Part shown: positions 1 to 58,593 of the stretch, piece by piece | Layout: every line of letters begins with the position of its first letter | How positions within the stretch are numbered: the first letter of the stretch is position 1 | NCBI GenBank assembly: GCA_026770705.1 | Contig: JANJGN010000021.1 | Location: 80,166,001-80,230,000, forward strand | Reading direction: 5' to 3' | Source of the DNA: Isurus oxyrinchus | Taxonomy: Eukaryota | Length of the DNA: 64,000 nucleotides | Position numbers and translations under genes: made by a program | Notes under the pieces: generated by a model | Database searches by the model: none | Told to the model about the DNA's origin: nothing | Seen by the model: only the letters and a program-made list of their open reading frames with translations

Positions 1-3000
1 AGCATTGCCAGTGTTAGGGAGCCTCTGTTCCAGCACTGTCGGTGTTAGGCAGCCTCTGTTCCAGCACTGTCAATATTAGGGTGCCTCTGATCCAATACTG
101 TCAGTGTTAGGGAGCCTCTGATCCATCACTGTCAGTGTTAGGGAGCCTTTGTTCCAGCACTGAGTGTTGGACAGCCTCTGTTCCAGCACTGTCAGTGTTA
201 GGGAGCGTCTTTTCGAGCACTGTCAGTGTTAGGGAGCCTGTGTTCCAGCACTGTCAATATTAGGGAGCCTCTGATCCAACACTGTCAATGTCAGGGAGTC
301 TCTGATCCAGCACTGTCAATGTTAGGGAGCCTCTGTTCCAGCACTGTCAGTGTTAGGCAGCCTCTGTTCCAGCACTGTCAATATTAGGGAGCCTCTGTTC
401 CAGCACTGTCAATATTAGGGAGCCTCTGATCCAGCACTGTCAATGTTAGGGAGTCTCTGTTCCAGCACTGTCAGTGTTAAGGAGCCTCTGTTCCAGCACT
501 GTCAATGTTAGGGAGCCTCTGTTCCAGCACTGTCAGTGTTATGGAGCCTCTGTTCCAGCACTGTCAATGTTAGGGAGCCTCTGTTCCAGCAGTGTCAGTG
601 TTAAGGAGCCTCTGTTCCAGCACTGTGAGTGTTAGGATTCCCAGTTTCAGCACGGTGAATGTTAGGGATCCCCTGTTCCAGCACTGTCAGTGTTATGGAG
701 CCGCTGTTCCAGCACTGTCAGTATTAGGGAAATCTGTTCCAGAACCGTCAGTGTTGGGGATCCCCTGTTCCTGCTCTGTCAGTGTTAGGGATACTCTGTC
801 CAAGCACTGTCAGTGTTAGGGAGCCTCTGTTCCAGCACTGTCAGTGTTAGGGAGCCTCAGTCCCGGCACTGTGAGTGTTAGTGAGCCTCTAATCCAGCAC
901 TATCAATATTAGGGAGCCTCTATTCCAGCACTGTCAATGTTAGGGAGCTTCTGTTCCAGAACTGTCAAAATTAGGGAGCCTCTGTGCCAGTACTGTCAAT
1001 GTTAGGGAGCCTCTGTTCCAACACTGTCAGTGTTATGGAGCCTCTGTTCCAGCACTGTCAATGTTAGGGAGCCTCTGTTCCAGCACTGTCAGTGTTAAGG
1101 AGCCTCTGTTCCAGCACTGTGAGTGTTAGGGATCTCCTGTTTCAGCATGGTGAATGTTAGGGATCCCATGTTCCAGCATTGTCACTGTTATGAAGCCTCT
1201 GTTCCAGCACTGTCAGTATTAGGGCACCTCTGTTCCAGCACTGTCAGTGTTACGGAAATCTGTTCCAGCACCGTCAGTGTTGGGGATCCCCTGTTCCAGC
1301 TCTGTCAGTGTTAGGGAGCCTCTGTCCCAGCACTGTCAGTGTTAGGGAGCCTCTGTTCCAGCACTATCAGTGTTAGGGAGCCTCTGTCCCAGCACTATCA
1401 GTGTTAGGGAGCCTCTGTTCCAGCACTGTCAATATTAGTGAGCCTCTGTCCCAGCACTGTCAATGTTAGGGAGCTTCTGTTCCAGCACTGTCAATGTTAG
1501 GGAGCCTCTGTGCCAGTACTGTCAATGTTCGGGAGCCTCTGTTCCAGCACTGTCAATGTTAGGGAGCTTCTGTTGCAGCACTGTGAGTGTTAGGGATCCC
1601 CTGTTCCAGCATTGTCAATATTAGGAAGCCTCTGATCTAGCACTGTCAGTTTTAGGGATCTTCTGTTCCAGCACTGTCAATGTTAGGGAGCCTCTGTTCC
1701 AGCACTGTGAGTGTTAGGGATCCCCAGTTTCAGCACGGTGAATGTCAGTGATCCCCTGTTCCAGCACTGTCAGTGTTATGGAGCCGCTGTTCCAGCACTG
1801 TCAGTATTAGGGAGCCTCTGTTCCAGCACTGTCAGTGTTAGGGAAATCTGTTCCAGAACCGTCAGTGTTGGGGATCCCCTGTTCCAGCTCTGTCAGTGTT
1901 AGGGATACTCTGTCCAAGCACTGTCAGATTTAGGGAGCCTCTGTTCCAGCACTGTCAGTGTTAGGGTGCCTCTGTCCCAGCACTATCAGTGTTAGGGAGC
2001 CTCTGTTCCAGCACTGTCAGTGTTAGGGAGCCTCAGTGCCGGCACTGTGAGTGTTAGTGAGCCTCTGATCCAGCGCTATCAATATTAGGGAGCCTCTATT
2101 CCAGCACTGTCAATGTGAGGGAGCTTCTGTTCCAGAACTGTCAAAATTAGGGAGCCTCTGTTCCAGCACTGTCAATGTTAGGGAGCCTCTGTTCCAGCAC
2201 TGTCAGTGTTAAGGAGCCTCTGTTCCAGCACTGTGAGTGTTAGGGATCTCCTGTTGCAGCACGGTGAATGTTAGGGATCCCCTGTTCCAGCACTGTCACT
2301 GTTATGGAGCCTCTGTTCCAGCACTGTCAGTATTAGGACACCTCTGTTCCAGCAGTGTCAGTGTTACGGAAATCTGTTCCAGCACCGTCAGTGTTGGGGA
2401 TCCCCTGTTCCAGCTCTGTCAGTGTTAGGGAGCCTCTGTCCCAGCACTGTCAGTGTTAGGGAGCCTCTGTTCCAGCACTATCAGTGTTAGGGAGCCTCTG
2501 TCCCAGCACTATCAGTGTTAGGGAGCCTCTGATCCAGCACTGTCAATATTAGTGAGCCTCCGTCCCAGCACTGTCAGTGTTAGTGAGCCTCTGTTCCAGC
2601 ACTGTCAGTGTTAGGGAGCCTCTGTCCCAGCACTGTGAGTGTTAGGGAGCCTCTGATCCAGCACTGTCAATATTAGGGAGCCTCTATTCCAGCACTGTCA
2701 ATGTTAGGGAGCTTCTGTTCCAGCACTGTCAATGTTAGGGAGCCTCTGTGCCAGTACTGTCAATGTTCGGGAGCCTCTGTTGCAGCACTGTCAATGTTAG
2801 GGAGCTTCTGTTGCAGCACTGTGAGTGTTAGGGATCCCCTGTTCCAGCATTGTCAATATTAGGAAGCCTCTGATCTAGCACTGTCAGTTTTAGGGATCTT
2901 CTGTTCCAGCACTGTCAATGTTAGGGAGCCTCTGTTCCAGCACTGTGAGTGTTAGGGAGCCTCTGATCCAGCTCTGTCAGTGTTAGGAAGCCTCTGTTCT

Positions 3001-6000
3001 GGCATTGTCAGTGTTAGGGAGATACTGTTCCTGCACAGTCAGTGTTAGGGAGCCTCTCTTCCAGCACTGTGAGTGCTAGGGAACCCCTGTTCCAACACTG
3101 TCAGTGTTAGGGAGCCTCTGATCTTGCACTGTCAGTGTTAGGGAGCCTGTGTTCCAGCACTGTCAATATTAGGAAGCCTTTGATCCAGCACTGTCAGTGT
3201 TAGGGAGCTTTAGTTCCAGCATTGCCAGTGTTAGGGAGCCTCTGTTCCAGCACTGTCGGTGTTAGGCAGAATCTGTTCCAGCACTGTCAGTGTTAGGGAG
3301 CCTCTGTTCCAGTACTGTCAGTGTTAGGGAGCCTCTGTTCCAGTACTGTGAGTGTTAGGGAGCCTCTGATCCAGTTCTGTCAGTGTTAGGAATCCTCTGT
3401 TCTGGCATTGTCAGTGTTAGGGAGATTCTGTCTCAGCACTGTCAGTGTTAGGGAGCCTCTGTTCCAGCACTGCGAGTGCTAGGGCACCCCTGTTCTAGCA
3501 CTATCAGTGTTAGGGAGCCTCTGATCCAGTTCTGTCAGTGTTAGGGAGCCTCTGTTCCAGCACTGTCAATATTAGGAAGCCTTTGATCCAGCACTGTCAG
3601 TGTTAGGGAGCTTCAGTTCCAGCATTGCCAGTGTTAGGGAGCCTCTGTTCCAGCACTGTCGGTGTTAGGCAGCCTCTGTTCCAGCACTGTCAATATTAGG
3701 GTGCCTCTGATCCAATACTGTCAGTGTTAGGGAGCCTCTGATCCATCACTGTCAGTGTTAGGGAGCCTTTGTTCCAGCACTGAGTGTTGGACAGCCTCTG
3801 TTCCAGCACTGTCAGTGTTAGGGAGCGTCTTTTCGAGCGCTGTCAGTGTTAGGGAGCCTGTGTTCCAGCACTGTCAATATTAGGGAGCCTCTGATCCAAC
3901 ACTGTCAATGTCAGGGAGTCTCTGATCCAGCACTGTCAATGTTAGGGAGTCTCTGTTCCAGCACTGTCAGTGTTAAGGAGCCTCTGTTCCAGCACTGTCA
4001 ATGTTAGGGAGCCTCTGTTCCAGCACTGTCAGTGTTATGGAGCCTCTGTTCCAGCACTGTCAATGTTAGGGAGCCTCTGTTCCAGCAGTGTCAGTGTTAA
4101 GGAGCCTCTGTTCCAGCACTGTGAGTGTTAGGATTCCCAGTTTCAGCACGGTGAATGTTAGGGATCCCCTGTTCCAGCACTGTCAGTGTTATGGAGCCGC
4201 TGTTCCAGCACTGTCAGTATTAGGGAAATCTGTTCCAGAACCGTCAGTGTTGGGGATCCCCTGTTCCTGCTCTGTCAGTGTTAGGGATACTCTGTCCAAG
4301 CACTGTCAGTGTTAGGGAGCCTCTGTTCCAGCACTGTCAGTGTTAGGGAGCCTCAGTCCCGGCACTGTGAGTGTTAGTGAGCCTCTAATCCAGCACTATC
4401 AATATTAGGGAGCCTCTATTCCAGCACTGTCAATGTTAGGGAGCTTCTGTTCCAGAACTGTCAAAATTAGGGAGCCTCTGTGCCAGTACTGTCAATGTTA
4501 GGGAGCCTCTGTTCCAACACTGTCAGTGTTATGGAGCCTCTGTTCCAGCACTGTCAATGTTAGGGAGCCTCTGTTCCAGCACTGTCAGTGTTAAGGAGCC
4601 TCTGTTCCAGCACTGTGAGTGTTAGGGATCTCCTGTTTCAGCATGGTGAATGTTAGGGATCCCATGTTCCAGCATTGTCACTGTTATGGAGCCTCTGTTC
4701 CAGCACTGTCAGTATTAGGGCACCTCTGTTCCAGCACTGTCAGTGTTACGGAAATCTGTTCCAGCACCGTCAGTGTTGGGGATCCCCTGTTCCAGCTCTG
4801 TCAGTGTTAGGGAGCCTCTGTCCCAGCACTGTCAGTGTTAGGGAGCCTCTGTTCCAGCACTATCAGTGTTAGGGAGCCTCTGTCCCAGCACTATCAGTGT
4901 TAGGGAGCCTCTGTTCCAGCACTGTCAATATTAGTGAGCCTCTGTCCCAGCACTGTCAATGTTAGGGAGCTTCTGTTCCAGCACTGTCAATGTTAGGGAG
5001 CCTCTGTGCCAGTACTGTCAATGTTCGGGAGCCTCTGTTCCAGCACTGTCAATGTTAGGGAGCTTCTGTTGCAGCACTGTGAGTGTTAGGGATCCCCTGT
5101 TCCAGCATTGTCAATATTAGGAAGCCTCTGATCTAGCACTGTCAGTTTTAGGGATCTTCTGTTCCAGCACTGTCAATGTTAGGGAGCCTCTGTTCCAGCA
5201 CTGTGAGTGTTAGGGAGCCTCTGATCCAGCTCTGTCAGTGTTAGGAAGCCTCTGTTCTGGCATTGTCAGTGTTAGGGAGATTCTGTTCCTGCACTGTCAG
5301 TGTAAGGGAGTCTCTCTTCCAGCACTGTGAGTGCTAGGGAACCCCTGTTCCAACACTGTCAGTGTTAGGGAGCCTCTGATCTTGCACTGTCAGTGTTAGG
5401 GAGCCTGTGTTCCAGCACTGTCAATATAAGGAAGCCTTTGATCCAGCACTGTCAGTGTTAGGGAGCTTTAGTTCCAGCATTGCCAGTGTTAGGGAGCCTC
5501 TGTTCCAGCACTGTCGGTGTTAGGCAGAATCTGTTCCAGCACTGTCAGTGTTAGGGAGCCTCTGTTCCAGTACTGTCAGAGTTAGGGAGCCTCTGTTCCA
5601 GCACTGTGAGTGTTAGGGAGCCTCTGATCCAGTTCTGTCAGTGTTAGGAATCCTCTGTTCTGGCATTGTCAGTGTTAGGGAGATTCTGTCTCAGCACTGT
5701 CAGTGTTAGGGATCCTCTGTTCCAGCACTGCGAGTGCTAGGGCACCCCTGTTCTAGCACTGTCAGTGTTAGGGAGCCTCTGATCCAGTTCTGTCAGTGTT
5801 AGGGAGCCTCTGTTCCAGCACTGTCAATATTAGGAAGCCTTTGATCCAGCACTGTCAGTGTTAGGGAGCTTCAGTTCCAGCATCGCCAGTGTTAGGGAGT
5901 CTCTGTTCCAGCACTGTCGGTGTTAGGCAGCCTCTGTTCCAGCACTGTCAATATTAGGGTGCCTCTGATCCAATACTGTCAGTGTTAGGGAGCCTCTGAT

Positions 6001-7860
6001 CCATCACTGTCAGTGTTAGGGAGCCTTTGTTCCAGCACTGAGTGTTGGACAGCCTCTGTTCCAGCACTGTCAGTGTTAGGGAGCGTCTTTTCGAGCACTG
6101 TCAGTGTTAGGGAGCCTGTGTTCCAGCACTGTCAATATTAGGGAGCCTCTGATCCAACACTGTCAATGTCAGGGAGTCTCTGATCCAGCACTGTCAATGT
6201 TAGGGAGCCTCTGTTCCAGCACTGTCAGTGTTAGGCAGCCTCTGTTCCAGCACTGTCAATATTAGGGAGCCTCTGTTCCAGCACTGTCAATATTAGGGAG
6301 CCTCTGATCCAGCACTGTCAATGTTAGGGAGTCTCTGATCCACCACTGTCAGTGTTAGGGAGCCTCGGTTCCAGCACTGTCGGTGTTAGGCAGCCTCTGT
6401 TTCAGCACTGTCAGTGTTAGGGATACCCTGTTCCAGCACTGTTAATGTTAGGCAGCCTCTGTTCCAGCAATGTCAGTGTTAGGGAGCCTCTGTTCCAGCA
6501 CTGTCAGTGTTAGGGAGCCTCTGTTCCAGCACTGTCAATGTTAGGGAGCCTCTGTTCCAGCACTGTCAGTGTTATGGAGCCTCTGTTCCAGCACTGTCAA
6601 TGTTAGGGAGCCTCTGTTCCAGCACTGTCAGTGTTAAGGAGCCTCTGTTCCAGCACTGTGAGTGTTAGGGATCCCCAGTTTCAGCACGGTGAATGTTAGG
6701 GATCCCCTGTTCCAGCACTGTCAGTGTTATGGAGCCGCTGTTCCAGCACTGTCAGTATTAGGGAGCCTCTCTTCCAGCACTGTCAGTGTTAGGGAAATCT
6801 GTTCCAGAACCGTCAGTGTTCGGGATCCCCTGTTCCAGCTCTGTCAGTGTTAGGGATACTCTGTCCCAGCACTGTCAGTTTCAGGGAGCCTCTGTTCCAG
6901 CACTGTCAGTGTTAGGTTGCCTCTGTCCCAGCACTATCAGTGTTAGGGAGCCTCTGTTCCAGCACTGTCAGTGTTAGGGAGCCTCTGTCCCGGCACTGTG
7001 AATGTTAGGGAGCCTCTGATCCAGCACTATCAATATTAGGGAGCCTCTATTCCAGCACTGTCAATGTTAGGGAGCTTCTGTTCCAGAACTGTCAATGTTA
7101 GGAAGCCTCTGTGCCAGTACTGTCAATGTTAGGTAGCCTCTGTTGCAGCACTGTCAATGTTAGGGAGCCTCTGATCCAGTACTGTAAGTGTTAGGGAGCC
7201 TCTGTTCCAGCACTGTAAATGTTAGGGAGCTTCTGTTCCAGAACTGTAAGTGTTAGGGAGCCTCTGTTCCAGCACTGTGACGATAAGGGTCCCCATGTTA
7301 CAGCACTTGTCACTATATGGGATCCCCTGTTCCAGCACAGTCATGATAAGTGTCCCCATATTGAAGCACTGTCGGTGTTGGGAACCCTTTGCTCCAGCAC
7401 TGTCACTCTGAGGGACTCCCTGCTATGTGAGATACCCCCTGTTATAACTCTCTCTGTGTAACAGACCCTGTGTTATTGCACAGTCAGTTTAAGAGGGCTG
7501 CCGTTGCAGCACAGCAGTGTAAACGCCCCGTCCTGCCGCACTGTCGGTGTAAACACCCCCTGTTACAGCACTGTCGATGTCATGGACTCCGTGTGTTAGT
7601 GCAAGCAGTGTAAGGGATCCCATGTTACAGCACTGTCCAAGGTTCCCCTTCTTCCAGTACTTTCAGTGCAAGGGACCCTCCGTTAGATCACTGTCAATGA
7701 TAGGTACACCACCCCCCCGCCCCTCCATCCCCCCAATTACAGCACTGTCAGTGTAAGGAACCCTGTGGTACAGTACAAACAGTAAGGAATCAAATGTTGC
7801 AGCATTGCCAGTGTAAAGGACAGTGTTGAAGCACTGTCAGTGTATGGTATCTTCTGTTAC
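1..7860. repeat. Satellite A: 31-bp tandem array, consensus GTTAGGGAGCCTCTGTTCCAGCACTGTCAGT; runs off the left edge, degenerate from ~7270
   Basis: The motif GTGTTAGG recurs at 11, 42 and onward with a 31-bp period. Homogeneous to ~7270, then divergent units to ~7860. The short ORFs here are translations of the repeat. Confidence 0.97.
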
Positions 7861-14704: not shown

Positions 14705-15185
14705 TGTCTAATAATACATTGGGGATCCTGGGCTTTATAAATAGAGAATTGGAGTACAAAAACAACGAAGTTATGGTTCCGGGAATGGGAGACTTCAATT
14801 CAGAGGATAGATTGGCTAAGTTTAGCAGAGAATGTTCAGGGGAGATTTGATAAAGGTGTTCCAAATCATGGGGGTCTGCAGTGGGTAAATAGAGAGTAAC
14901 TGTGGCAGTGGAATCAGGAAACAGAGGGTACCGATTTAAAGTGACTGGCAAAAGAAGCAACGGTGACATGAGGAAATCTTTTTCACACAGCGAGTGTTTC
15001 AGATTTGGAATGGTCTGCCTGAGAGTGTGGAGGCAGATTGAGTCGTGTCTTTCAAAGGAAAATTGTATAATTACCTGAAGGGAGAAAAAAACGCAGGTCT
15101 GTAGGAAATGGGACCAGCCGAGTTGTTTCTACAGAGAGCCGGCACTGACAAGACGGGCCGAACGGCCTCCTTCTGTAGTGTTATT
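14705..15185 (+). mobile_element. Older CR1 3'-end fragment directly upstream of the B2M promoter
   Basis: LGILGFINRELEYKNNEVM-like ORF2 C-terminal remnant, TTTTCACACAGCGAGTG, and the terminal GGGCCGAACGGCCTCCTTCTGT motif. Confidence 0.75.
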
Positions 15186-15314
15186 ATTTTGAGTGCATGT
15201 TCCTATGTGTTCCTACATTTATGTTTATGTTCATGTTCACTAACTGTATATGTACCCGAACTCTGAACATGGCTATGGCTACGTGAGAACAGCCTATTGT
15301 TGCCGGTCGACAGG

Positions 15315-15326
15315 AGTTTCGTTTTC
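15315..15326 (+). promoter_or_regulatory. ISRE (interferon-stimulated response element) of the B2M promoter
   Basis: AGTTTCGTTTTC is an exact match to AGTTTCNNTTTC, ~330 bp upstream of the B2M ATG. B2M and MHC-I promoters are known to carry ISREs. Confidence 0.75.
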
Positions 15327-15368
15327 ACGGCCCTTGCGGAGCCGCCCTCTCAGACTTGCCTGTTTCAC

Positions 15369-15434
15369 AAACTCTACAGCAGTCTTTTACCCGGAGACCG
15401 GTGACCCTGTAGGATAGAATATTACGATTGGCTG
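15369..15434 (+). promoter_or_regulatory. SXY (S-X1-X2-Y) module of the B2M promoter
   Basis: S-like AAACTCT at 15369-15375, X1/X2 GGAGACCGGTGAC at 15393-15405, a 20-nt spacer, and Y box GATTGGCTG at 15426-15434. Confidence 0.7.
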
Positions 15435-15447
15435 AAATGGGGACGGT

Positions 15448-15514
15448 GGGCGGTGCCGAACGTGGTTGCTTATTTTCTGATTGGTGCCGGGCCGCTTGTT
15501 TGTTACAGTTTAAT
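15448..15514 (+). promoter_or_regulatory. Proximal B2M promoter: GC box, second inverted CCAAT, TATA-like element
   Basis: GGGCGG at 15448-15453, CTGATTGG at 15477-15484 and GTTTAAT at 15508-15514, within a locally CpG-rich stretch (~15290-15800). Confidence 0.55.
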
Positions 15515-15649
15515 CGTGAGTCCAGGATGCGAAGAACAGAAGCTGCGGGAGAAGAGCCAGAGTTCGGAGGGAGTTGGAGTGAGTCCGGACCCGAGCTCGG
15601 ACTGAACCTTTTTACCTGAACTTGAGATCTCCCTAGGGAACCTACAACT

Positions 15650-15701
15650 ATGATGCTGAAACTTGTGGTCCTGTCCGTGGTCTCGGCCCTGTGCCTGGCT
15701 G
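15650..15701 (+). CDS. B2M: B2M exon 1 coding part (signal peptide)
   Basis: ACAACTATGATG start context, hydrophobic MMLKLVVLSVVSALCLA, donor G|GTAAGT at 15701/15702. Missed by the ORF track because it is short. Confidence 0.9.
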
Positions 15702-18651
15702 GTAAGTGAGCTCGGTGTTTGAGGAGCTCCCGGGGTGAGTGCGCTACCGCTTCGCAGAGTTTAGAAAATAATTTAAACCTCAAGCGGACCATTCGGCCCC
15801 TCTCTCTGCAGGAACTCTCTCCTCAGCCCCGTTTCTTTTACAAAATACCCGCTAGATTGAGTCTTCTGTAGGAGCAGTGAATGGCCTAGCTTCCAGTTCA
15901 CAGCCGTGATGAGGAAGTCATTACCTTCTGAAGGGGAGCACTCCTGGAGGGCGGCCTTCTGAAGGGGAGCACTCCTGGAGGGCGGAATCTTGAACAATAT
16001 TTCATAGATCTTTATTGCTTCACCGCCCAGATAATATTCTGAATTTATGCAACTCACTTCCACGTGACTGCTTATGTTAGTGATAGTGTAAACGTGTTTG
16101 TGAAGTTGATGTGCGAGTTTGTGCTGTTATGACTCTGACCAGAAGTCCCATGAAAAATGCACATTTTGTTCATTAGGACTCAACTACTTTCAAACCCATC
16201 CTCAGTTTTCTCTATATATTGTATCAAAAAATGCTGGAAACACAACCGTCTGGCAGTATTGGTGGAGAGAGAAACAGAGTTAATGTTTCAGATCATTGAT
16301 CTTTTGTCAAGCTGAAATATAAACTGTTTCTCTTTCCGTAGATGTGCTGAATATTTCCAGCATTTTCTGTTCCTATTCGAAATGTTCAGCATCCGGAGCA
16401 TTTTTCTTTTTTCCAGATATCAGTTCAAACTTTTACTTTCATTTTTTCATCTCTCGCTGTCTTCTGTTTTCAGTGTCTTCTATTTCTCACCACTTTGCTT
16501 TTTCAATATTCTGTCCCATATGGATGTGTCCCATCCACTGGGAGAAGAAATTCTAGTCAATTTATGGATATTTCCCAGAGACTAGGAGTGAGAGACCCCA
16601 GCCAGTGTATTTGTATCTCCCAGAGACTGAGACCGAGACACCCCAGTCAGTGTATGGAGATCTTGCAAAGACTGGGACTGAGAGATCCACTTAGTGTATA
16701 GATTTCTTCCAGCCTCAATATCTAGGAGATAGACCCCAGTCAGTGATGGTGAAGAATATGAATGCAGTTTCTGTTAGTTTGCTCTGTCTCTGAACCTCTG
16801 CTCTGTCCCTAGGTCCTCCAAATGTACAGGTGTATACGTACAGACCCATAAGGGAAGGTGAAAGCAATGTGCTGTTCTGTCATGCCAAAGATTTCAGCCC
16901 CCCCAACATCAAGCTGGAGCTGTTGGAGAATGAAAATGTCATACCCAATGCCAACCAGTCTGACCTCTCCTTCGAGGCAGATTGGAGCTTCAAGCTCACT
17001 AAATTTGTTGAAATCACCCCCAAGAACGGAGTCAAGTACGTCTGTAGGGTGGAACACAATGGTGCTTCAAAAGTCATTCAGCTTGGTAAGTAATCTGTCT
17101 GTTCGTCATGACTAATGTGCATCTACACAAACGCTCCCACACATACTCTGCCCTCTGTGATATCAGCTCATCAACTGCAAGCTTCATCTGACACACAACT
17201 TCCGCAAAGTGGCAAGCAGAGTTGGATAGCCACTCTGTGCCTACTTCTTAAAATTTTTTCAATCCTGTCTCACCCAACAGTCTGACTGAGGCCAGGCAAC
17301 ACTGCAGGGTAGTGCGCTCCTAAAGCCTTCAGTTGAATGCTGCTGCATCGGAGAGGAGGAGGCCACACCCCTTTTTTACAGCAGCAGTTGCCATAAATCC
17401 TTAGTGCCTGTTGTTGTAGATCAGGTGAGTTTAAAGGTCCAGCCTCTTTCAAGTCAGGGAGAAGGTAGGTTTGACAAATAACACTTAAGAATTTGGGGTG
17501 GTCGGCCAGTCTGGGATGGGTGGATGTGGGGGTTCAGCCACTTGTGCAGGGGGCTGGGTGGGGTATAAGAAAGCCCTATGTTGTGGGTGGAGAACAGTCC
17601 CATGGAAGGAGGGAGGCTCCTGGGGTTTCAGGAATTAGGAGTTTTCCGGGGGGGTTTGGGAGTCTTGTGTTTTAGGGGTTGCTGTAGATCAGTACAATAG
17701 TTACTCAGAAACTGGAAATGGTTATCATTATTCAGCCTTTTTCTGAGTGGCCATTGATGTAAGACAGCCAGAACCATCAGAGATTTGCAATTTAAATTGC
17801 ATTTTCAGATGGTTCTCAGTGCAGGGGAATTGCCCATCGGAAGTTTGCACTTCTTGGGCAATTGCCGGGCAAATCTTGCCTGGAAACCTCAGTGGTGGGG
17901 GGGGGGGGTTGTGTGTGTGTATGTGTGTGTGTGAGACAGTGATGGGAGATTGAGGGGGAGGTGGGAGAGTGAGATGAGGGTGGTGTGTCGGTGGTGGGAG
18001 ATTGGGGGGGGTGACATTGGTGGGGGAGCAGGGGGTGGTGGGGGGGGGCGTGTGGTTCCCCAGCATATCTTTGGTGTTACCCCCCCCCCCCCCCCTCCTT
18101 TTACACTGACCTGGAGCTCAGAAGTTAAGGCCAATAATCCTGTAAACATAGGCTCCTCTTCCACTGACATCAACAGTTGATTAGACTCCATGCGAGATAT
18201 CAGTCAGTCAAAGCAAACACTCCAGTTCATCCTGTCAAAACAGACCCCTGTTGAGATAACCCATATGTGAGACTTGGACCTAAGCCAAGCTCATCTGGAA
18301 ACTGTGTTGGCAGAAACAGATGCCCAGACACCTATTTCTCCAGCTGGGCTGATTATGAACGCTTGCACCTGTGGGTTCCAAAGCTTGCCACCGCTGCGAG
18401 TTTCCTCAACTCGTGTCTGGGTCTCTTGAAGATTCATTTTTAGAGATTGATTGCTGACTAGTTAACAGTTCCTTATCATTTTATCATATGACAAGGATGG
18501 TGGAGGGCCAACTAGATGGACCTTGGTCTTCCAGCTGGTGATTCCCATGTTCCTTTTATGTGAATTGAAGCCTGATTGACTGGTGGGCAGCTGTAAATTT
18601 TGATTACGGACTAATGATTTTTCTGTGCTTCCACCCACAGACAGCTACTAG
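15650..18651 (+). CDS. B2M: Beta-2-microglobulin, spliced CDS join(15650..15701,16813..17085,18641..18651), 111 aa
   Basis: Translation: MMLKLVVLSVVSALCLA-GPPNVQVYTYRPIREGESNVLFCHAKDFSPPNIKLELLENENVIPNANQSDLSFEADWSFKLTKFVEITPKNGVKYVCRVEHNGASKVIQL-DSY*. Signal peptide plus an Ig C1 domain with B2M hallmarks (P.VQVY, C...F.P..I, SDLSF..DWSF, Y.CRV.H). Both introns are GT-AG and phase 1, as in other vertebrate B2M genes. 52+273+11=336 nt, in frame. Confidence 0.96.
15924..15985. repeat. Exact 31-bp tandem duplication in B2M intron 1
   Basis: CCTTCTGAAGGGGAGCACTCCTGGAGGGCGG at 15924-15954 and 15955-15985. Confidence 0.95.
16226..16416. mobile_element. Palindromic module built from two opposed Penelope-tail sequences, in B2M intron 1
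   Basis: AAAATGCTGGAAA (~16228-16240) pairs with TTTCCAGCATTTT (16354-16366). GGAGAGAGAAACAG (16264) pairs with CTGTTTCTCTTTCC (~16324-16337). Both arms resemble the tail at 12590-12690. Confidence 0.7.
16535..16745. repeat. Degenerate 45-bp minisatellite (~4 units) in B2M intron 1
   Basis: CA(G/A)AGACT recurs at 16576, 16621 and 16666, each followed by ...AGTGTAT.... Confidence 0.7.
16813..17085 (+). CDS. B2M: B2M exon 2 (Ig C1 domain)
   Basis: Acceptor CTCTGTCCCTAG|G and donor G|GTAAGT. Overlaps the track ORF 16830..17093. Confidence 0.97.
17190..18132 (-). mobile_element. Non-autonomous DNA-transposon-like (MITE-like) repeat in B2M intron 2; second copy at ~31655-32823
   Basis: Blocks align in reverse complement with the downstream copy, e.g. 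17421-17475 vs ~32570-32625 and 17730-17865 vs ~31750-31860. Ends resemble AACTTC.../...GAAGTTAAGGCC. Confidence 0.7.
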
Positions 18652-21184: not shown

Positions 21185-24100
21185 ACCTCGGACAGTGACG
21201 GTCTGTGTCACTGCTCGAACACTACTGGGAGACAGAGTATATTGACGGTCAGTATCACAGATCACGCATTACTGGGAGAGACTGGACAGTGACGGTCAAT
21301 GAACACACATTACTGGGAGAGAGTGGTTAGTGAGGATGTATATCATGGATCACAAATTGCTGGGAGAGAGTGAACTGTGACAGTCAGTGTCACTGATCAC
21401 GTTACTGGGAGAGGCTGGTTAGTGATGGTCAGTGTCACATTACTGGGAGAGACTGGACAGTGATGGTCAGTGTCAATGGTCACATTACTGGGAGAGTGGA
21501 CAGTGTTGGTCAGGGTCACTGATCACACATTACTGGGAGAGAGTGAACTGTGACGGTCAATAGCACGGATCACAAGTTACTGGGAGAGGCTGGACAGTGA
21601 TGGTCAATGTCACTAATCGCATATTACTGGGAGAGTGAACAATGATGGTCAGTATCACAGATCCCACATTTCTGGGAGAGGCTGGACAGTGAGGGTCAGT
21701 GTCACTGATCACATCTTACTGGGAGAGAGTGGATACTGACGATCAGTGTTACTGATCACATGTTACTGAGAAAGAGTGGATAATGAGGAAGTATATCGCT
21801 GATCACATGTTACTGGGAGAGGCTGGACAGTGACGATCAGTGTCACTGATCATAAATTACTTGGAGAGACTGGATGGTGAACATCAGTGTAACTGATCAC
21901 ACTACTGGGACAGAGTGGTTAGTGAGGATGTATATCATGGGTCACAAATAGCTGGTAGTGACTGGACAGTGATGGTCATTGTCACTGATCACACATCACT
22001 GGGAGAAACTGGATGGTGGCGGTCAGTGTCACTGATTATACATCACTGGGAGAAACTGGATGGTGGCGGTCAGTGTCACTGATTATACATTACTGGGAGA
22101 AACTGGACAGTGGCGGTCAATGTCACTGATCACACATTACTGGGAGAAACTGGACAGTGGCAGTCAGTGTCACTGATCACATCTTACTGGGAGAGAGTGG
22201 ATACTGAGGAAGTATATCGCTGATCACGTTACTGGGAGAGGCTGGACAGTGACGATCAGTGTCACTGATCACAAATTACTTGGAGAGACTGGATGATGAA
22301 CAGTGTAACTGATCACACTACTGGAACAGAGTGGTTAGTGAGGATGTATATCATGGATCACAAATAGCTGGTAGTGACTGGACAGTGATGGTCATTGTCA
22401 CTGATCACACATCACTGGGAGAAACTGGACAGTGGCAGTCAGTGTCACTGATCACACATTACTGGGTGAGAATGGATAGTGACAATTAGTGTCACTGATC
22501 ACATGTTATTGGGAGAGCCTGGACACTGATGATCAGTATTACCGATCAGACATTGCTGGAAGAGGCTGGACAGTGACGGTGAGTGTCACATATCACACAT
22601 TACTGGGTAAGACAGGACAGTGATGGTGAGGGTCATGATCACACATTACTGGAGAGAGTGGATAGTGACGATTAGTGCCACTGATCACACTTCACTGGGA
22701 GAAACTGGACAGTGGCAGTCAGTGTCACTGATTACACATTACTGGGAGAGAATGGACGGTGGTGGTCATTGTCACTGATCACAAATTACAGGGAGGGAGT
22801 TGATAGTAAGGATGTACATTACGGATCACAAATTGCTGGGAGAGTGGATAGTGATGGTCAGGGTCACTGATCGCATATTACTGGAAGAGACTGGACAGTG
22901 ATGGTCAGTGTCAATGGTCACACATTACTGGGAGAGTGGACAGTGTTGGTCAAGGTCACTGATCACACATTTCTGGGAGAGAGTGAACTGGGACAGTCAG
23001 TATCACGGATCACACGTTACGGGGAGAGGCTGGACAGTGACGGTCAATGTCACATCACATATTGCTGGGAGAGAGTGAACAGTGATGGTCAGTATCACAG
23101 ATCCCGCATTACTGGGAGAGGCTGGACAGTGAGGGTCAGTGTCACTGATCACATCTTACTGGGAGAGAGTGGATACTGACGATCAGTGTCACTGATCACA
23201 CATTACTGAGATAGAGTGGATAATGATGAAGTATTATCACTGATCACACATTACTGGGAGAAACTGGACAGTGGCGGTCAGTGTCACTGATCACACATCA
23301 CTGGGAGAAACTGGACAGTGGCGGTGAGTGTCACTGATCACACATTACTGGGAGAAACTGGACAGTGGCGGTCAATGTCACTGATCACACATCACTGGGA
23401 GAGAGCAGATACTGACGATCAGTGTCACTGATCACATGGTACTGAGAGAGAGTGAATAATGATGAAGTATATCGCTGATCACATGTTACTGGGAGAGGCT
23501 GGACAGTGACGATCAGTGTCACTGATCATAAATTACTTGGAGAGACTGGATGGTGAACATCAGTGTAACTGATCACACTACTGGGACAGAGTGGTTAGTG
23601 AGGATTTATATCATGGATCACAAATAGCTGGTAGTGACTGGACAGTGATGGTCATTTTCACTGATCACACATCACTGGGAGAAACTGGACAGTGGCAGTC
23701 AGTGTCACTGATCACACATTACTGGGTGAGAATGGATAGTGACAATTAGTGTCACTGATCACATGTTATTGGGAGAGCCTGGACACTGATGATCAGTATT
23801 ACCGATCAGACATTGCTGGAAGAGGCTGGACAGTGACGGTGAGTGTCACATATCACACATTACTGGGAGAGACTGGACAGTGATGGTCAGTGTCAATGGT
23901 CACACATTACTGGGAGAGAGTGGATAGTGAAGATTAGTGCCACTGATCACACTTCACTGGGAGAAACTAGACAGTAGTGGTCAGTGTCACTGATTACACA
24001 TTACTGGGAGAGAATGGACGGTGGTGGTCATTGTCACTGATCACAAATTACAGGGAGGGAGTTGATAGTAAGGATGTACATTACGGATCACAAATTGCTG

Positions 24101-27100
24101 GGAGAATGGATAGTGATGGTCAGGGTCACTGATCGCATATTACTGGGAGAGACTGGACAGTGATGGTCAGTGTCAATGGTCACACATTACTGGGAGAGTG
24201 GACAGTGTTGGTCAAGGTCACTGATTACACATTTCTGGGAGACAGTGAACTGTGACGGTCAGTATCATGGATCACACGTTACTGGGAGAGACTGGACAGT
24301 GACGGTCAGTGTCAATGGTCACACATTACTGGGAAAGTGGACAGTGTTGGTCAGGGTCACTGATCACACATTACTGGGAGAGAGTGAACTGTGAGGGTCA
24401 GTATCACGGATCACACGTTACTGGGAGAGGCTGGACAGTGACGGTCAATGTCACTTATCACATATTGCTGGGAGAGAGTGAACAGTGATGGTTGGTGTCA
24501 CAGATCACACGTTGCTGGGAGAGGCTGGACTGTGATGGTCAGTGTTACTGATCACACCTTACTGGCAGAGGCTGGATAGTGATAGTCAGTGTCACTGATC
24601 ACACATTACTGGGAGAGTCTGGACAGTGATGGTCAGTGTTACAGATCACATGTTAATTGGAGTGACTGGACAGTGATGGTCAGTGTCACTGATCGCACAT
24701 TACTGGGTGAGGGTGGATAGTGAGGATGTATATCACGGACCACAAATTGCTGAGAGAGACTGGACAGTGATGTCAGTGTAACTGATCATACATTACTGGG
24801 AGAAGCTGGACAGTGACGGTCAGTGTCACTGATCACAAGTTACTGGGACAGAGTGGAAAGTGAGGATGTACAGCATGCATCACATATTGCTGCAAGAGAG
24901 AGGATGGTGACAGTCAGTGTCGCTGATCACACAATACTGGAAGAGACTGGACAGTGACGGTCAGTGTCACTGATCACACATCACTGGACAAGACTGGATA
25001 GTGAGGATGTATATCACCTATCACAAATTGCAGGGAGAGACTGGACTGTGACGGTCAGTGAAACTGATCACACGTTACTGGGAGAGGGAACAATGACGGT
25101 CAGTATCACGGATCACACATTACTGGGAAAGGTTGGACAGTGACGGTCAGTGTCACTGATCAGACATTACTGGGAAAGTGGATAGTGATGGGGTCAGGGT
25201 TACTGATCACATGTTACTGGGTGAGACTGGATTGTGAACATCAGTGTCACTGATCACAAATTACTGGGAGAGAGTGGTTAGTGAGGATGTATATCACACC
25301 ACAAATTGCTGGAGGAGACTGGGTAGTGATGTTCAGTGTCAATGATCACAAATTACTGGGAGAAAATAGATAGTGACGATGTATATCACAGATCACAAAT
25401 TGCTGAGTGAGAGTGGATAAGAGACAGTCAGTGTCACTGATCACACATGACTGGGAGAGGCTGGACAGTGATGGTCAGTGTCATTGATAACACATTACTG
25501 GGAGAGAGTGGATAGTGAGGATGTGTATCACTGATCACACATTACAGGGAGAGAGTGGATAGTGAGGACGTATATCACACATCACAAATTGCTGGAAGAG
25601 AGTGAACAGTGACAGTCAGTGTCACTTAACACCCATTACTGGGAGAGGATGGATAGTGAGGATATATATCACAGATCACAAATTGCTGGGAAATAGTGGA
25701 TAAGTGACAGTCAGTGTTACTAATCAAACATTACTGGGTGAGACTGGATAGTGACGGTCAGTGTCACGGATCACACATTACTGAGAGAGAGTGGATAGTG
25801 AGGATGTATATCGCTGATCACAAATTGCTGGGAGAGAGTGGACAATGACGGTCAGTGCAACTGATCACACATTACTGAGAGTGGGTAGTGAGGATGTATA
25901 TCGCTGATCACAAATTGCTGGGAGAGAGTGGACAGTGACGGTCAGTATCACTGATCACACAATACTGGGAGAGGCTGGACAGTGACGGCCAGTGTCACTG
26001 CTTCACACATTACTGGGAGACAGTGAATAGTAAGGATGTATATCACGCATCACAAATTGCTGGAAGAGGCTGGATAGTGATGTTCAGTATCACTGATCAC
26101 AGATTACTGCGAAAGACTGGATAGTGATGGTCAACGTCACTGATCACACATTACTGGGAGAGAGTGGATCGTGAGGATGTATCTCACGCATCACAAATTG
26201 CTGGGAGAGTGGTTAACTGACGGTCAGTGTCACTGATCAAGCATTACTCTGAGAGGCTGGATAGTGATGGTCTGTTTCACTGGTCACACATTCCTGGGAG
26301 AGAGTGACGGTCAAAATCACTGATCACACATTACTGGGAGAGTGGATAGTGACGGGGTCAGGGTTATTGATCACATGTTATTGGGTGAGATTGGATGGTG
26401 AACATCAGTGTAACTGATCACACATTACTGGGAGAGACTGGATAGTGATATTCAGTGTCACTGATCACAAATTACTGCGAGAGAATGGATATTGAGGATG
26501 TATGTCACAGATCACAAATTCTGGGAGAGAGTGGATAAGTGACGGTTAGTGTTACTGATCACACATTACTCGGGGAGGCTGGACAGCGACGATCAGAGTC
26601 ACTGTTCACATATTACGGGGAGAGACAGGACAGTGATGGTCAGTGTTCCTTATCACACGTTACTGAGAGAGACTGGATAGTGATGTTCAGTGTCACTGAT
26701 AATACATTACTGGGAGAGGGTAGACAGTGAAGGCCAGTGTTACTGATCGCATATCACTGGGAGCAAGTAGACACTGACTGCCAGTGTAACTGCTCGCACG
26801 TTACTGGGAGAGGCTGGACAGTGACGGTCAGTGTCACTGATCACACATTACGGGGAGAGACAGGACAGTGATGTTCAGTGTCGCTGATCACACATTACTG
26901 GGAGAGAATGGATAGTGACGATGTACATCACAGATTGCTGGGAGAGAGTGGATAAATGACGGTCAGTGTCACTGATAACACATTACTGGGCGAAGGTAGA
27001 CAGTGACGGCCAGTGTTACTGATCGCATATCACTGGGAGCAAGTAGACACTAACTGTCAGTGTAACTGCTCACACGTTACTGGAGGATTCTGGACAGTGA

Positions 27101-27180
27101 CGATCAGTGTCACTGTTCACACATTACGGGGAGAGACAGGACAGTGATGGTCAGTGTTACTGATCACACATTACTGGAAC
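21185..27180. repeat. Satellite B: 47-bp tandem array, consensus ACTGATCACACATTACTGGGAGAGACTGGACAGTGACGGTCAGTGTC
   Basis: GTGTCACTGA at 23281 and 23328 gives a period of 47. An internal ~1260-bp block duplication is marked by GATGATCAGTATTACCGATCAGAC at 22528 and 23788. Confidence 0.96.
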
Positions 27181-27600: not shown

Positions 27601-27843
27601 GTTCCTGTTGATAACGTTTCTGTTTCTGGAGATGAGGGTCAGAGTTGAAGTTTGTCAGGGTGTTGTCTTTAGTCGATCTGAGATGGAGACACTATATTGT
27701 AGACAGGATGGTGATGGTCAGTGTTACTGACCACATTACTGGGACAGAGAGTAGAATGTCCGTTAGGTGGAGGTACTGGTGATTTTGACTAGAGGGTGAA
27801 ACAATGTTGAGTATAACTAGAGTCTGCCACTGCTCTTCAAGAA

Positions 27844-30600
27844 ATGCCTACTTCCTTGAAGAAGTTCTGTTCCTCTCTGCGACAAGATTTCCGTATCTCT
27901 CTGTTGCCTTGTTCACCTTCTTTGCTTTCCATTTCCCTCCTGGTGTTTGACAAGGTGTTTACTAAAACCCGCTTTCACAGCCATATCTCCTTTCTCAGTG
28001 ACTGTCTCCGTCTCCGACTTACCCCACGTGGATTTCAACTGAAATTCCACCCCTCATCTTTCGAACCCACCCAGGATTACTGGTACCTCCGCGACATAAA
28101 ACGTTTCTCGGACTGCTGTTCCCGTCACATTCTGAAATCCACACTCAGTGCCATGCGCCGCCATATGAACACACTCGACCTCTCCCTCCAGCAGCACCGC
28201 CATACCCTTTTTCAAAGCTGCGCGTGCCCCCAGTTTCATTTTATCCTTCGGCTCATCCGACGCCTCAACAAGAAACTTTTTCTCTTTCTCTCAAGTGCTA
28301 AGGAACGCAAGCTCCAACAACTCATCGACACCAACACCCATCTAGGACCCTCCACCCTGGCCTGTCCCTCCGTCCCCACCCCATCTTCCAATCCCAGCCC
28401 CAGCCGTGTATTCACTATACCCCCTGACCTTCCCCTCTCCGATGCTGAACGTTCAGTGCTCAGCAAAGGATTAAGTTTCATACCCTTACGCCCTCACCTG
28501 AATGAATTTTGGGCTCGGCATGATACTGAACTCTTCTTCCGCCGTCTTCGTCTCCGGGCTCACTTCTTTGGGCAGGAGTCCTCTCCCAGTTCAACGGATC
28601 CTTTTACCCATCTCCAATATTCTCCCTCCACCTGGACCCCTCCCTCTGGATTCTTACCTTCTCTCGATCTTTTCATTGAGAACTGTCGGCGCGACATTAG
28701 TCGTCTCAATTTCTCTGCTCCTCTCACCCATTCTAACCTGTCTCTCTCTGAACTTACTGCACTCCATTCTCTCAGGTCCAACCCTGACATTGTCATCAAA
28801 CCCGCTGACAAGGGTGGTGCTGTTGTTGTCTGGCGCACTGACCTCTACCTCGCGGAGGCTGAGCGTCAACTCGCAGACACTTCCTCCTACCTCTCCCTGG
28901 ACCATGACCCCACCACTGAACATCAAGCCATTGTTTCCAGGACTGTCACTGACCTCATCTCCTCTGGGGATCTCCCTCCCACAGCTTCCAACCTGATAGT
29001 CGCCCAACCTCGGACGGCCCGCTTCTATCTCCTACCCAAAATCCACAAACAGAACTGTCCTGGTAGACCGATCGTCTCAGCTTGCTCCTGCCCCACAGAA
29101 CTCATTTCTCGTTATCTTGACTCCCTTCTCTCTCCCCTTGTCCAGTCCCTTCCCACCTACATCCGTGATTCCTCTGACACCTTACGTCACATCAACAATT
29201 TCCAGTTCCCTGGCCCCAACCGCTTCCTCTTCACCATGGACGTCCAATCCCTCTACACCTCCATCCCCCACCAGGATGGTCTGAGGGCCCTTAGCTTCTT
29301 CCTCAAACAGAGGCCCGAACAATCCCCATCCACCACTACTCTCCTCCATCTGGCTGAACTTGTTCTCACGTTGAACAATTTCTCCTTCAACTCCTCTCAC
29401 TTCCTCCAAATAAAAGGTGTGGCTATGGGTACCCGCATGGGCCCCAGCTATGCCTGTCTCTTTATGGGGTATGTGGAACATTCCTTGTTGCAGTCCTACT
29501 CCGGCCCCCTTCCACAACTTTTTCTCCGGTACATCGATGATTACTTTGGTGCCGCTTCATGCTCTCGACGGGACTTGGAAAAATTTATTAATTTTGCTTC
29601 CAATCTCCACCCCTCCATCATTTTCACGTGGTCCATCTCTGACACTTCCCTTCCCTTCCTTGACCTCTCTGTCTCAATCTCTGGTGATAGACTGTCCACC
29701 AATATCCATTACAAACCCACCGACTCCCACAGCTACCTAGACTACAGCTCCTCACACCCCGCTTCCTGTAAGGACTCCATCCCATTCTCCCAGTTCCTTC
29801 GCCTTCGTCGCATCTGTTCCGATGATGCTACCTTCAAAAACGGTTCCTCTGACATGTCCTCCTTCTTCCTTAACCGAGGTTTTCCATCTACGGTCGTTGA
29901 CAGGGCCCTCAACCGTGTCCAGCCCATCTCCCGCGCATCCGCCCTCACGCCTTCTCCTCCCTCCCAGAAACATGATAGGGTCCCCCTTGTCCTCACTTAT
30001 CACCCCACCAGCCTCCGCATTCAAAGGATCATCCTCCGCCATTTCCGCCAACTCCAGCATGATGCCACCACCAAACACATCTTCCCTTCACCCTCCTTAT
30101 CGGCATTCCGTAGGGATCGCTCCCTCCGGGACACCCTGGTCCACTCCTCCATCACCCCCTACTCCTCAACCCCCTCCTATGGCACCACCCCATGCCCACG
30201 CAAAAGATGTAACACCTGCCCCTTCACTTCCTCTCTCCTCACCATCCAAGGGCCCAAACACTCCTTTCAAGTGAAGCAGCATTTCACTTGCATTTCCCCC
30301 AACTTAGTCTACTGCATTCGTTGCTCCCAATGTGGTCTCCTCTACATTGGAGAGACCAAACGTAAACTGGGCGACCGCTTTGCAGAACACCTGCGGTCTG
30401 TCCGCAAGAATGACCCAAACCTCCCTGTCGCTTGCCATTTTAACACTCCACCCTGCTCTCTTGCCCACATGTCTGTCCTTAGCTTGCTGCATTGTTCCAG
30501 TGAAGCCCAACGCAAACTGGAGGAACAACACCTCATCTTCCGACTAGGCACCTTACAGCCTTCCGGACTGAATATTGAATTCAACAACTTTAGGTCGTGA
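27844..30600 (+). CDS. Penelope-like element polyprotein: reverse transcriptase + GIY-YIG endonuclease (918 aa)
   Basis: IKPADKGGAVVV, FYLLPKIHK, GRPIVS, MDVQSLYTSIP, GVAMGTRMGPSYA, RYIDD and LPFLD are PLE RT motifs. A Cys-rich linker PCPRKRCNTC precedes LVYCIRCSQCGLLYIGETKRKLGDRFAEH (GIY-YIG). Confidence 0.95.
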   Translation: MPTSLKKFCSSLRQDFRISLLPCSPSLLSISLLVFDKVFTKTRFHSHISFLSDCLRLRLTPRGFQLKFHPSSFEPTQDYWYLRDIKRFSDCCSRHILKSTLSAMRRHMNTLDLSLQQHRHTLFQSCACPQFHFILRLIRRLNKKLFLFLSSAKERKLQQLIDTNTHLGPSTLACPSVPTPSSNPSPSRVFTIPPDLPLSDAERSVLSKGLSFIPLRPHLNEFWARHDTELFFRRLRLRAHFFGQESSPSSTDPFTHLQYSPSTWTPPSGFLPSLDLFIENCRRDISRLNFSAPLTHSNLSLSELTALHSLRSNPDIVIKPADKGGAVVVWRTDLYLAEAERQLADTSSYLSLDHDPTTEHQAIVSRTVTDLISSGDLPPTASNLIVAQPRTARFYLLPKIHKQNCPGRPIVSACSCPTELISRYLDSLLSPLVQSLPTYIRDSSDTLRHINNFQFPGPNRFLFTMDVQSLYTSIPHQDGLRALSFFLKQRPEQSPSTTTLLHLAELVLTLNNFSFNSSHFLQIKGVAMGTRMGPSYACLFMGYVEHSLLQSYSGPLPQLFLRYIDDYFGAASCSRRDLEKFINFASNLHPSIIFTWSISDTSLPFLDLSVSISGDRLSTNIHYKPTDSHSYLDYSSSHPASCKDSIPFSQFLRLRRICSDDATFKNGSSDMSSFFLNRGFPSTVVDRALNRVQPISRASALTPSPPSQKHDRVPLVLTYHPTSLRIQRIILRHFRQLQHDATTKHIFPSPSLSAFRRDRSLRDTLVHSSITPYSSTPSYGTTPCPRKRCNTCPFTSSLLTIQGPKHSFQVKQHFTCISPNLVYCIRCSQCGLLYIGETKRKLGDRFAEHLRSVRKNDPNLPVACHFNTPPCSLAHMSVLSLLHCSSEAQRKLEEQHLIFRLGTLQPSGLNIEFNNFRS

Positions 30601-35900: not shown

Positions 35901-36455
35901 GTCTCTTACTGACGGCCCGAGTCTTTAATCCCTCGGACTGAGGGCCTGGATCTTTACTCTCTCAGACTGAAGGTCTGGGTTTTACTATCACTTATTGAGG
36001 GTCTGGGCCTTTATTCCCTCGGGCTGACGGTCTGGGTCTTTACTCTCTTGGACTGAGGGTCCGGGTCTTCACTCTCTCAGGCTGAGGGTCCAGGCCTTTA
36101 GTCTCTCGGACTGAGGATCTGGGTCTTTACCCTCTTGGACTGAGGGTCCGAGTCTTTACTCTCTCGGGCTGAGTGTCCGGGAATTTACTCTCTCGGACTT
36201 GAGGGTCCGGGTTTTTACTCTCTTGGACTGAGGGCCCAGGCCTTCACTCTCTCGGACTGAGGGCCCGAGTCTTTACTCCCTCGGACTGAGGGTCCAGGCC
36301 TTTGCTCTATCTTACTGAGGGCCAGGGTCTTTACTCAGTTGGACTGAGGGCCCGGGTCTTTACTCTCTCTTATTGAGGGCCCAGGTCTTTACTCTCTCGG
36401 ACTGAGGGGCCAGGCCTTTACTCTCTCCATATGAGGGCTCGGGTCTTTACTCTCT
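32945..36455. repeat. Satellite C: 29-bp tandem array, consensus ACTGAGGGTCCGGGTCTTTACTCTCTCGG
   Basis: Period of 29 (TGAG at 34381 and 34410). An internal block duplication is marked by GTACAGGTCTTAACTTTTCGCAC at 34501 and 35427. Confidence 0.96.
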
Positions 36456-57400: not shown

Positions 57401-58593
57401 CCGCGCCCTTTTTAAAATGAACTCCTGTCGGTCAGTGCTCTATGTTTAAAATGAACTCCCCTCACTCACCGCACCCTTTTTAACATGAACTCCCCTCGCT
57501 CACCGCACCCTTTTTAACATGAACTCCCCTCGCTCACCACGCTCTTTTTAAAATGAACTCCCCTCACTCTGTTTAAAATGAACTCCCCTCGCTCACCGCG
57601 TCCTTTTTAAAATGAACTCCCCTCGCTCACCGCGTCCTTTTTAAAATGAACTCCCCTCGCTCACCGCGTCCTTTTTAAAATGAACTTCCCTCACTCACCA
57701 CGCTATTTTTAAAATGAACTCCCCTCGCTCACCTTTCCATTTTTAAAATGAATTCCCCTCGTTCACCGCGCCCTTTTTAAAATGAACTCCCCTCGCTCAC
57801 CACGCCCTTTTTAAAATAAATCCCCTGACTCACCGCGCCTTTTTTAAAATGAACTCCCCTCGCTCACCGCGCCCTTTTTAAAATGAACTCCTGTCGGTCA
57901 GTGCTCTATGTTTAAAATGAACTCCCCTCACTCACCGCACCCTTTTTAACATGAACTCCCCTCACTCACCACGCCCTTTTTAAAATGAACTCCCCTGACT
58001 CACCGTGCCCTTTTTAAAATGAACTCCCCTCGCTCTGTTTAAAATGAACTCCCCTCGCTCACCGCGTCCTTTTTAAAATGAACTTCCCTAACTCACCGCG
58101 CTATTTTTAAAATGAACTCCCCTCTCTCACTGCACCTTTTTTAAAATGAACTCCCCTCGCTCACCGTGCTCTGTTTAAAATGAAGTCCCCTCACTCACTG
58201 TACTCTGTTTCAAATGAACTCCCCTCGTTCACCGCGCCCTTTTTTAAATGAACTCCCCTCGCTCACCGTGCCCTATTTAAAATCAACTCCCCTCTCTCAC
58301 CGCGCCCTTTTTAAAATGAACTCCCCTCACTCACTGCGCCCTATTTAAAATGAACTCCCCTTGCTCACCGCAGTCTTTTTAAAATGAACTCCCCTCGCTC
58401 ACCGCGCTCTGTATAAAATGAACTCCCCTCGCTCACCGCGCCCTTTTTAAAATGAACTCCCCTCGCTCACCACGCTCTATTTAAAATGAACTCCCCTCGC
58501 TCACCACGCTCTATTTAAAATGAACTCCCTTCGCTCACCGCGCTCTTTTTAAAATGAACTCCCCTCACTCACCGCGCCCTTTTTAAAATGAAC
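42425..58593. repeat. Satellite D: ~16-kb CpG-rich array of 34-bp units (TTTTTAAAATGAACTCCCCTCGCTCACCGCGCCC) mixed with 25-bp deletion units
   Basis: AAATGAACTC at 47761 and 47795 gives a period of 34. The short unit AAAATGAACTCCCCTCGCTCTGTTT is 25 bp. Confidence 0.98.

Follow-up and report, generated by a model that had tools for sequence, protein, structure and literature searches.

The proximal promoter of the shark beta-2-microglobulin gene (B2M) is likely to hold a working, inherited MHC enhanceosome site. In the 64-kb stretch of DNA analysed here (the window), an ISRE, a weak S box, an X box and a Y box stand upstream of B2M in the order and with the spacing of the corresponding mammalian elements. 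This reading comes from the sequence, and the evidence for it falls into four parts: the match to human and mouse promoters, the conservation of the boxes in two related organisms, the recurrence of the module in the shark MHC, and the position of an S box that was held out of the search.

Elements of the B2M promoter

The first-pass annotation of this DNA described an SXY-like module in the B2M promoter. X and Y are indeed present upstream of B2M, within the MHC, and the positions claimed for the motifs are exact: AAACTCT begins at 15369, GGAGACCGGTGAC occupies 15393-15405 and, after 20 nt of spacer, GATTGGCTG occupies 15426-15434. Neither the X 13-mer nor the Y 9-mer has a second copy on the + strand of the 64-kb window. 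X starts 257 nt upstream of the B2M ATG, the module being sense-oriented and lying in the proximal promoter.

All of the elements described here are on the + strand. The X1/X2 core (15393-15405) consists of a predicted RFX site and a CREB/ATF half-site, TGAC (15402-15405). It is followed by the X-Y spacer (15406-15425) and by the Y box (15426-15434), which is an inverted CCAAT and a predicted NF-Y site. The S box, which is weak and of class I type, is best placed at 15368-15374, with 18 nt between it and the X core, or 16 nt if the X motif is counted from its opening CC. The earlier list of elements was right for X and Y but overlooked an ISRE-type element, AGTTTCNNTTTC, at 15315-15326. This is a predicted IRF site and the sole match, on both strands of the window, to what we take to be the ISRE consensus.

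Downstream of the module there are a GC box (15448-15453, a possible Sp1 site) and a second inverted CCAAT (15479-15484), both of which are sequence matches only, and an AT-rich hexamer (15509-15514) with a putative role in the promoter, some 29 nt upstream of the point where the retrocopy match described below begins. Searches of 15000-15650 gave no match to a canonical TATA box, and none to kappaB or GAS elements. The promoter region is CpG-rich, with an observed/expected ratio of 0.84 at 15001-15500 (range of values 0.78-0.84).

The B2M gene and its surroundings

The gene is identified as B2M by its second exon (16813-17085, + strand), which encodes a C1-set domain (Pfam C1-set), has its splice sites present and matches beta-2-microglobulin chains with an E value of 1.7e-44; the best-matching chains are, we assume, from a shark. 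The signal-peptide exon opens with the ATG at 15650, encodes 17 residues and is followed by a donor GT at 15702. Together with its 5' UTR, exon 1 reaches from a start at or upstream of 15538 to 15701 on the + strand, as indicated by a processed copy of the gene and by a contig of run X20 in which exon 1 continues into exon 2; that X20 is RNA is a guess.

The processed copy is found on contig C17 (L002:1502-1749 in G000:C17, from 45,828,770) and is about 96% identical. It runs from the 5' UTR through exon 1, which is joined to exon 2, and after 86 nt of exon 2 it is cut off on the 3' side. Because its match to the window begins at 15538, the B2M transcript should start at or upstream of this position, no more than about 104 nt away from the Y box.

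B2M lies at 80.18 Mb on contig C21, with one class II alpha exon on either side of it (79.72 and 80.75 Mb), and 31 of the 33 class I matches are on this same contig. That B2M is linked to the MHC in sharks had been established earlier (PMC8713811).

Elsewhere, the window contains large minisatellite arrays at 1-7405, 21190-27177, 32982-36455, 42457-58593 and 59411-62762 (periods 31, 47, 29, 34 and 44, respectively), and the 34-nt-period array, which extends over 16 kb, is unusually CpG-rich (o/e about 1.4-1.6). On the + strand, 27817-30600 is a stop-free frame of 927 codons, probably a retroelement.

Match to human and mouse promoters

Transcription-factor sites seldom stay recognisable between sharks and mammals. 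The shark X core is identical at 12 of 13 positions to the X core of human B2M, and the shark Y 9-mer is identical at all nine positions to a mouse B2m promoter primer. The published sequences and statements used in this and the following sections are those in the available excerpts of the papers cited. The human X core is contained in B2M exon-1 forward primers from two papers (PMC9369391, 10.1101/533869), and the mouse B2m promoter ChIP primer includes the reverse complement of GATTGGCTG (PMC4374748). The first-pass annotation gave identities to human B2M of 12/13 for X and 9/9 for Y: the former is borne out by the human primers, while the latter is seen for mouse B2m, the human B2M Y box and the 21-nt spacer proposed for it not having been found in print. 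One literature match for the X 13-mer was to an unrelated simulated sequence and was discarded.

A naive estimate for the chance occurrence of a 12/13 X together with an exact Y 9-mer, at one of three gaps and within 300 nt, is about 2e-9 for equal base frequencies, although this figure combines the human X with the mouse Y, and that for the X match alone is 2e-4.

The spacing also agrees. In mouse H2-K, there are 18 nt between the end of the S 7-mer and the GG of the X core, and Y starts 20 nt after the X core; for NLRC5 targets the distances given are 16 bp for S-X and 20-22 bp for X-Y, and the S box determines NLRC5 specificity (PMC4374748). The shark B2M X-Y gap, at 20 nt, equals that of H2-K and is inside the 20-22 bp range. 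Compared with the same excerpted mouse sequences, the shark B2M X core is 10/13 identical to H2-K and 7/13 to H2-Eb, and the S box is 4/7 identical to the S of H2-K and 3/7 to that of H2-Eb.

Conservation in related organisms

Four of 24 listed runs were compared, and the promoter was covered in organism B (one run) and organism C (two runs from two samples). The promoter contigs have 95-99% identity (1-5% diverged), and X, Y and the ISRE are unchanged in both organisms. It had been suggested that the motif should be compared with its spacer for conservation. In these two close relatives the boxes do fare better than the spacer, with variable sites at 0 of 22 positions in X and Y versus 4 of 20 in the spacer (one-sided p=0.043), but they do not stand out from the promoter as a whole, since the comparison of ISRE, X and Y with the rest of 15300-15537 (0/34 versus 11/204) is not significant (p=0.18).

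The spacing, which had been proposed to be constrained, is not a rigid one. In B2M the gap of 20 nt is that of the published H2-K sequence, but across shark promoters the gap ranges from 17 to 21 nt, and it is 24 nt in one contig of organism C. The X-Y spacing is described as looser at NLRC5 sites in the available text of one paper (PMC7922096), which would tolerate part of the observed variation. The longer gap is due to a 4-nt duplication within the X-Y spacer, at window position 15412, in run X10 of organism C; it is absent from X12, and is possibly a natural spacing allele, as judged from a single contig.

Recurrence of the module in the shark MHC

X-Y modules with gaps of 17-21 nt precede the leader exons in eight genes, half of them class I and half class II, corresponding to four of ten class I regions, two of two class II alpha regions and both class II beta candidates. 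The paralogue scan took in 279,900 bases, made up of the 20 kb preceding each of ten class I alpha-1 exons and the 40 kb preceding each of two class II alpha exons, and gave seven sense matches, no antisense matches and one match in the reversed sequence. At no more than one mismatch, six matches were observed where a Markov background predicts 0.19; at up to two mismatches, the same background predicts 1.9. The test is slightly post hoc, because the last X position of the pattern had been widened to C/T after an earlier scan. Six of the seven sense matches lie 173-314 nt before a signal-peptide ATG, four of these being in class I and two in class II alpha genes. The remaining six class I regions have no module within 20 kb upstream, and their leader exons were not located.

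The class II beta candidates were taken from the C1-set search, the MHC_II_beta family search having given no match among 29 scored candidates, which is uninformative. Both candidates have a proximal module, with gaps of 19 and 17 nt. In both (L091-L095, at 79.66 and 80.88 Mb of C21) there is a second X-Y module some 0.4-0.5 kb farther up, and further copies of ATTGG occur in a run before the ATG. A second module also exists for the class I gene at 100.10 Mb; it lies 2.1 kb upstream, and its X box is class II-like.

A tighter pattern, built from the shark modules, was then applied to the whole genome, and gave 28 matches compared to 2 in the control; 22 of the 28 are on C21 at 65.4-100.1 Mb. 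Seven of these 22 were in the training set and 15 were not used in building the pattern. The 15 held-out matches amount to about five independent groups: eight near-copies (65.4, 66.6 and 69.35-69.47 Mb), three matches at 79.21-79.22 Mb, two that adjoin class I-type leaders, and single matches at 70.20 Mb and upstream of a class II beta candidate. For 13 of the 15 there is no leader exon downstream, and no first exons could be tied to these orphan modules. Several modules are in an antigen-processing region, as judged by the proteasome and ABC-transporter exons at 65.45, 69.58, 70.17 and 70.56 Mb.

Some of these sites are worth describing individually. At 69.35-69.47 Mb of C21 (L057-L062, L096) a full S-X-Y recurs in tandem as at least seven near-copies, with S boxes of class I type (5-6/7 to the excerpted mouse sequence), and related copies are found at 65.37 and 66.60 Mb (L054, L056). 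The tandem modules are at least 107 kb upstream of a TAP-like gene (69.58 Mb), whose first coding exon follows a splice acceptor and has no X-Y module in the 700 nt upstream of it. They are possibly the duplicated promoter of an untranslated first exon, or else a distal enhancer cluster. The module at C21:70,201,377 (L063) is flanked by exons for a proteasome subunit-type gene at 70.17 Mb and an ABC transporter at 70.56 Mb, and its S 7-mer is identical (7/7) to the published mouse H2-K S; no leader exon was found for it.

On another contig (L076-L090 in G000:C102, 150 kb scanned) there are four C1-set exons, and one of these matches B2M better than anything but B2M itself. These probably represent W-category genes. 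No X-Y module is present within 450 nt of the four leader candidates, and three weak two-mismatch matches elsewhere on the contig are copies of one repeated element, without a leader.

The S box

The S box served as a held-out test, being excluded from the search pattern and scored against the mouse H2-K 7-mer printed in the available excerpt. Across the 22 MHC matches, the mean identity is 4.45/7 at a gap of 18 nt and no more than 2.36 at any other gap between 14 and 22. At 18 nt, 13 of the 22 reach at least 5/7 (6 of 13 after an imperfect collapse of near-copies), in contrast to none of the 22 at the other gaps, and none of the six matches outside the MHC does so at 18 nt. The earlier claim had placed an S-like element, AAACTCT, 17 nt upstream of X: that register has a mean of 1.95/7 and is rejected in favour of CAAACTC (15368-15374) at 18 nt.

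Scored against the same 7-mer, three of the four class I promoters have S boxes at 5-6/7 and one is at 1/7, and three of the four class II promoters are at 1/7 and one is at 4/7. For B2M the score of 4/7 has a chance probability of 7%, and S is the weakest part of the module. It is, however, identical at six of seven positions to the S of the shark class I promoter at C21:100.10 Mb, at an equal register. The S box of organisms B and C ends in G, unlike that of the source species; with this G their B2M S box becomes identical (7/7) to that class I S, and is 5/7 identical to the mouse H2-K S. The B2M S sequence leans to the class I type, with 4 as against 3 of 7 positions, and in being common to a shark class I promoter.

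It is here that a different reading has to be weighed, namely that X and Y are real RFX/CREB/NF-Y sites but that the S box of B2M is decayed or unused, leaving a promoter that is constitutive or CIITA-responsive rather than NLRC5-specific. The low identity to both mouse S boxes fits this, as does the departure of the source species from both relatives at the last S base, and one shark class I promoter (the one at 1/7) does without an S match. Yet a decayed element sits poorly with 6/7 identity (7/7 in the relatives) to a class I S at equal register, and with a register that is so sharply defined across the MHC matches. We regard the reading as unlikely, while giving it real weight.

Other possible origins of the pattern

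The B2M promoter might instead be of the common CpG-island housekeeping kind, its resemblance to SXY arising by chance or convergence from a CRE half-site, CCAAT boxes and a GC box. The CpG ratio is in keeping with this, as are the GC box and the second CCAAT. Moreover, a loose X-Y pattern gave 14 matches genome-wide versus 15 in the control, which is chance level, so that the bare pattern proves nothing. It also matched an unrelated CpG-rich promoter with several CCAAT boxes (L010, at 151.5 Mb of G000:C7), the first exon of which we take to resemble mevalonate diphosphate decarboxylase. What such a promoter does not explain is the 12/13 identity to the orthologous human site in the published primers, the concentration of the tighter pattern in the MHC (22 of 28 matches), where the DNA around the matches is mostly CpG-poor, or the appearance of the held-out S box at the 18-nt register. 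We therefore consider it very improbable.

Slighter still is the chance that the motif is common to shark MHC loci through local duplication or conversion of one segment rather than through common regulation: this may hold for the tandem copies, given the eight near-identical ones (65.4, 66.6 and 69.35-69.47 Mb) and the three at 79.21-79.22 Mb, but the B2M, class I and class II promoters have unrelated spacers while their boxes and distances are kept, and for B2M the idea is already largely refuted by the match to human and mouse, for which duplication within sharks cannot account.

A model for regulation

For an inherited enhanceosome site at B2M, trans factors would be needed, and domains above the cut-off were found in the genome for RFX5_N (two), RFXAP (two exons) and an NLRC5-type CARD (one). 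These matches, from searches for factors of the RFX5, RFXAP and NLRC5 types, are to single domains rather than full genes, and the RFX5_N profile may, we presume, also match RFX7.

In the mammalian model, as the available parts of two papers describe it, a complex of RFX, CREB/ATF1 and NF-Y recruits NLRC5 (PMC7922096, PMC7281430). By analogy with the mammalian work, RFX5/RFXAP/RFXANK would bind X1 of the shark promoter, CREB/ATF1 would bind the TGAC half-site (X2), and NF-Y would bind the inverted CCAAT about two helical turns away. The platform so formed on X and Y would bring in NLRC5, probably in preference to CIITA, given the class I type of the S box. With IRF factors on the ISRE the promoter would also respond to interferon, and B2M would be raised along with the class I heavy chains. 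A salmon study counsels caution for fish, the enhanceosome being suggested, in the available text, not to drive IFN-gamma induction in its cell line (PMC7573153).

Evolutionary meaning

The first-pass annotation had proposed that the layout dates back to the ancestor of jawed vertebrates. This is supported by the X and Y match to the mammalian sequences available, by the shark MHC paralogues and by the two relatives, and the SXY gene switch is likely to be as old as the jawed vertebrates themselves. If the S-X-Y geometry is conserved, antigen presentation would have been under coordinated control since the MHC arose.

The result was to be expected in kind, since such motifs have been reported in teleosts, and it extends known biology while overturning none. 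From the available parts of the papers, SXY is established for mammalian B2M (PMC8192903), has been reported in opossum (PMC1351924), and is called highly conserved across vertebrates in a review (PMC7281430), and teleost class I promoters have W/S, X2 and Y motifs (PMC7573153, PMC6523485). No report of SXY in cartilaginous fish was found in the literature searched, though an earlier one is possible.

It is more speculative to suppose, and on balance we doubt, that sharks have retained an entire SXY regulon limited to the MHC and that an S-box code, with NLRC5 on the class I side and CIITA on the class II side, already existed in the ancestor of jawed vertebrates. What suggests it is that B2M, class I and the distal modules of the TAP/PSMB region have an S of the type published for mouse class I (7/7 in one case), that the class II promoters are mostly without it, and that the W-category-like genes have no module. 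With the exact shark sites one can ask at what point the targets of NLRC5 and CIITA diverged, and if the B2M promoter came from a class II alpha-like ancestor.

Comparison with known systems

The closest parallel is the NLRC5-bound SXY of mouse H2-K, B2m and further class I genes (PMC4374748), with which the shark promoter shares the S-X-Y order, an S-X distance of 16 nt (18 to the GG core), an X-Y distance of 20 nt and an ISRE upstream of the module. It differs from the H2-K construct, as described in the available excerpt, in that the shark ISRE is 41 nt upstream of S whereas in H2-K it is adjacent; in addition, the shark B2M S is only 4/7 identical (5/7 in the relatives). The human B2M promoter, so far as the excerpt describes it (PMC8192903), has a similar layout of ISRE and SXY upstream of exon 1, but the shark sequence at 15000-15650 is without a kappaB-type match.

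The CIITA-bound class II SXY of H2-Eb (PMC4374748) is similar in its X-Y layout, and several shark modules have a class II-like X box, with up to 11/13 identity to the excerpted sequence. Shark B2M, by contrast, is at 7/13 for X and 3/7 for S, and so is not of class II type in either box, and in the proximal promoters of shark class II genes the best identity to the H2-Eb S, at positions up to 4 nt from the register, is 4/7.

Finally, the teleost and opossum modules (PMC7573153, PMC6523485, PMC1351924) are, from the parts of these reports available, alike in being modules of this kind outside placental mammals. The promoters described here differ in belonging to a cartilaginous fish, and the shark case would move the origin of the module from the bony-vertebrate to the jawed-vertebrate ancestor.
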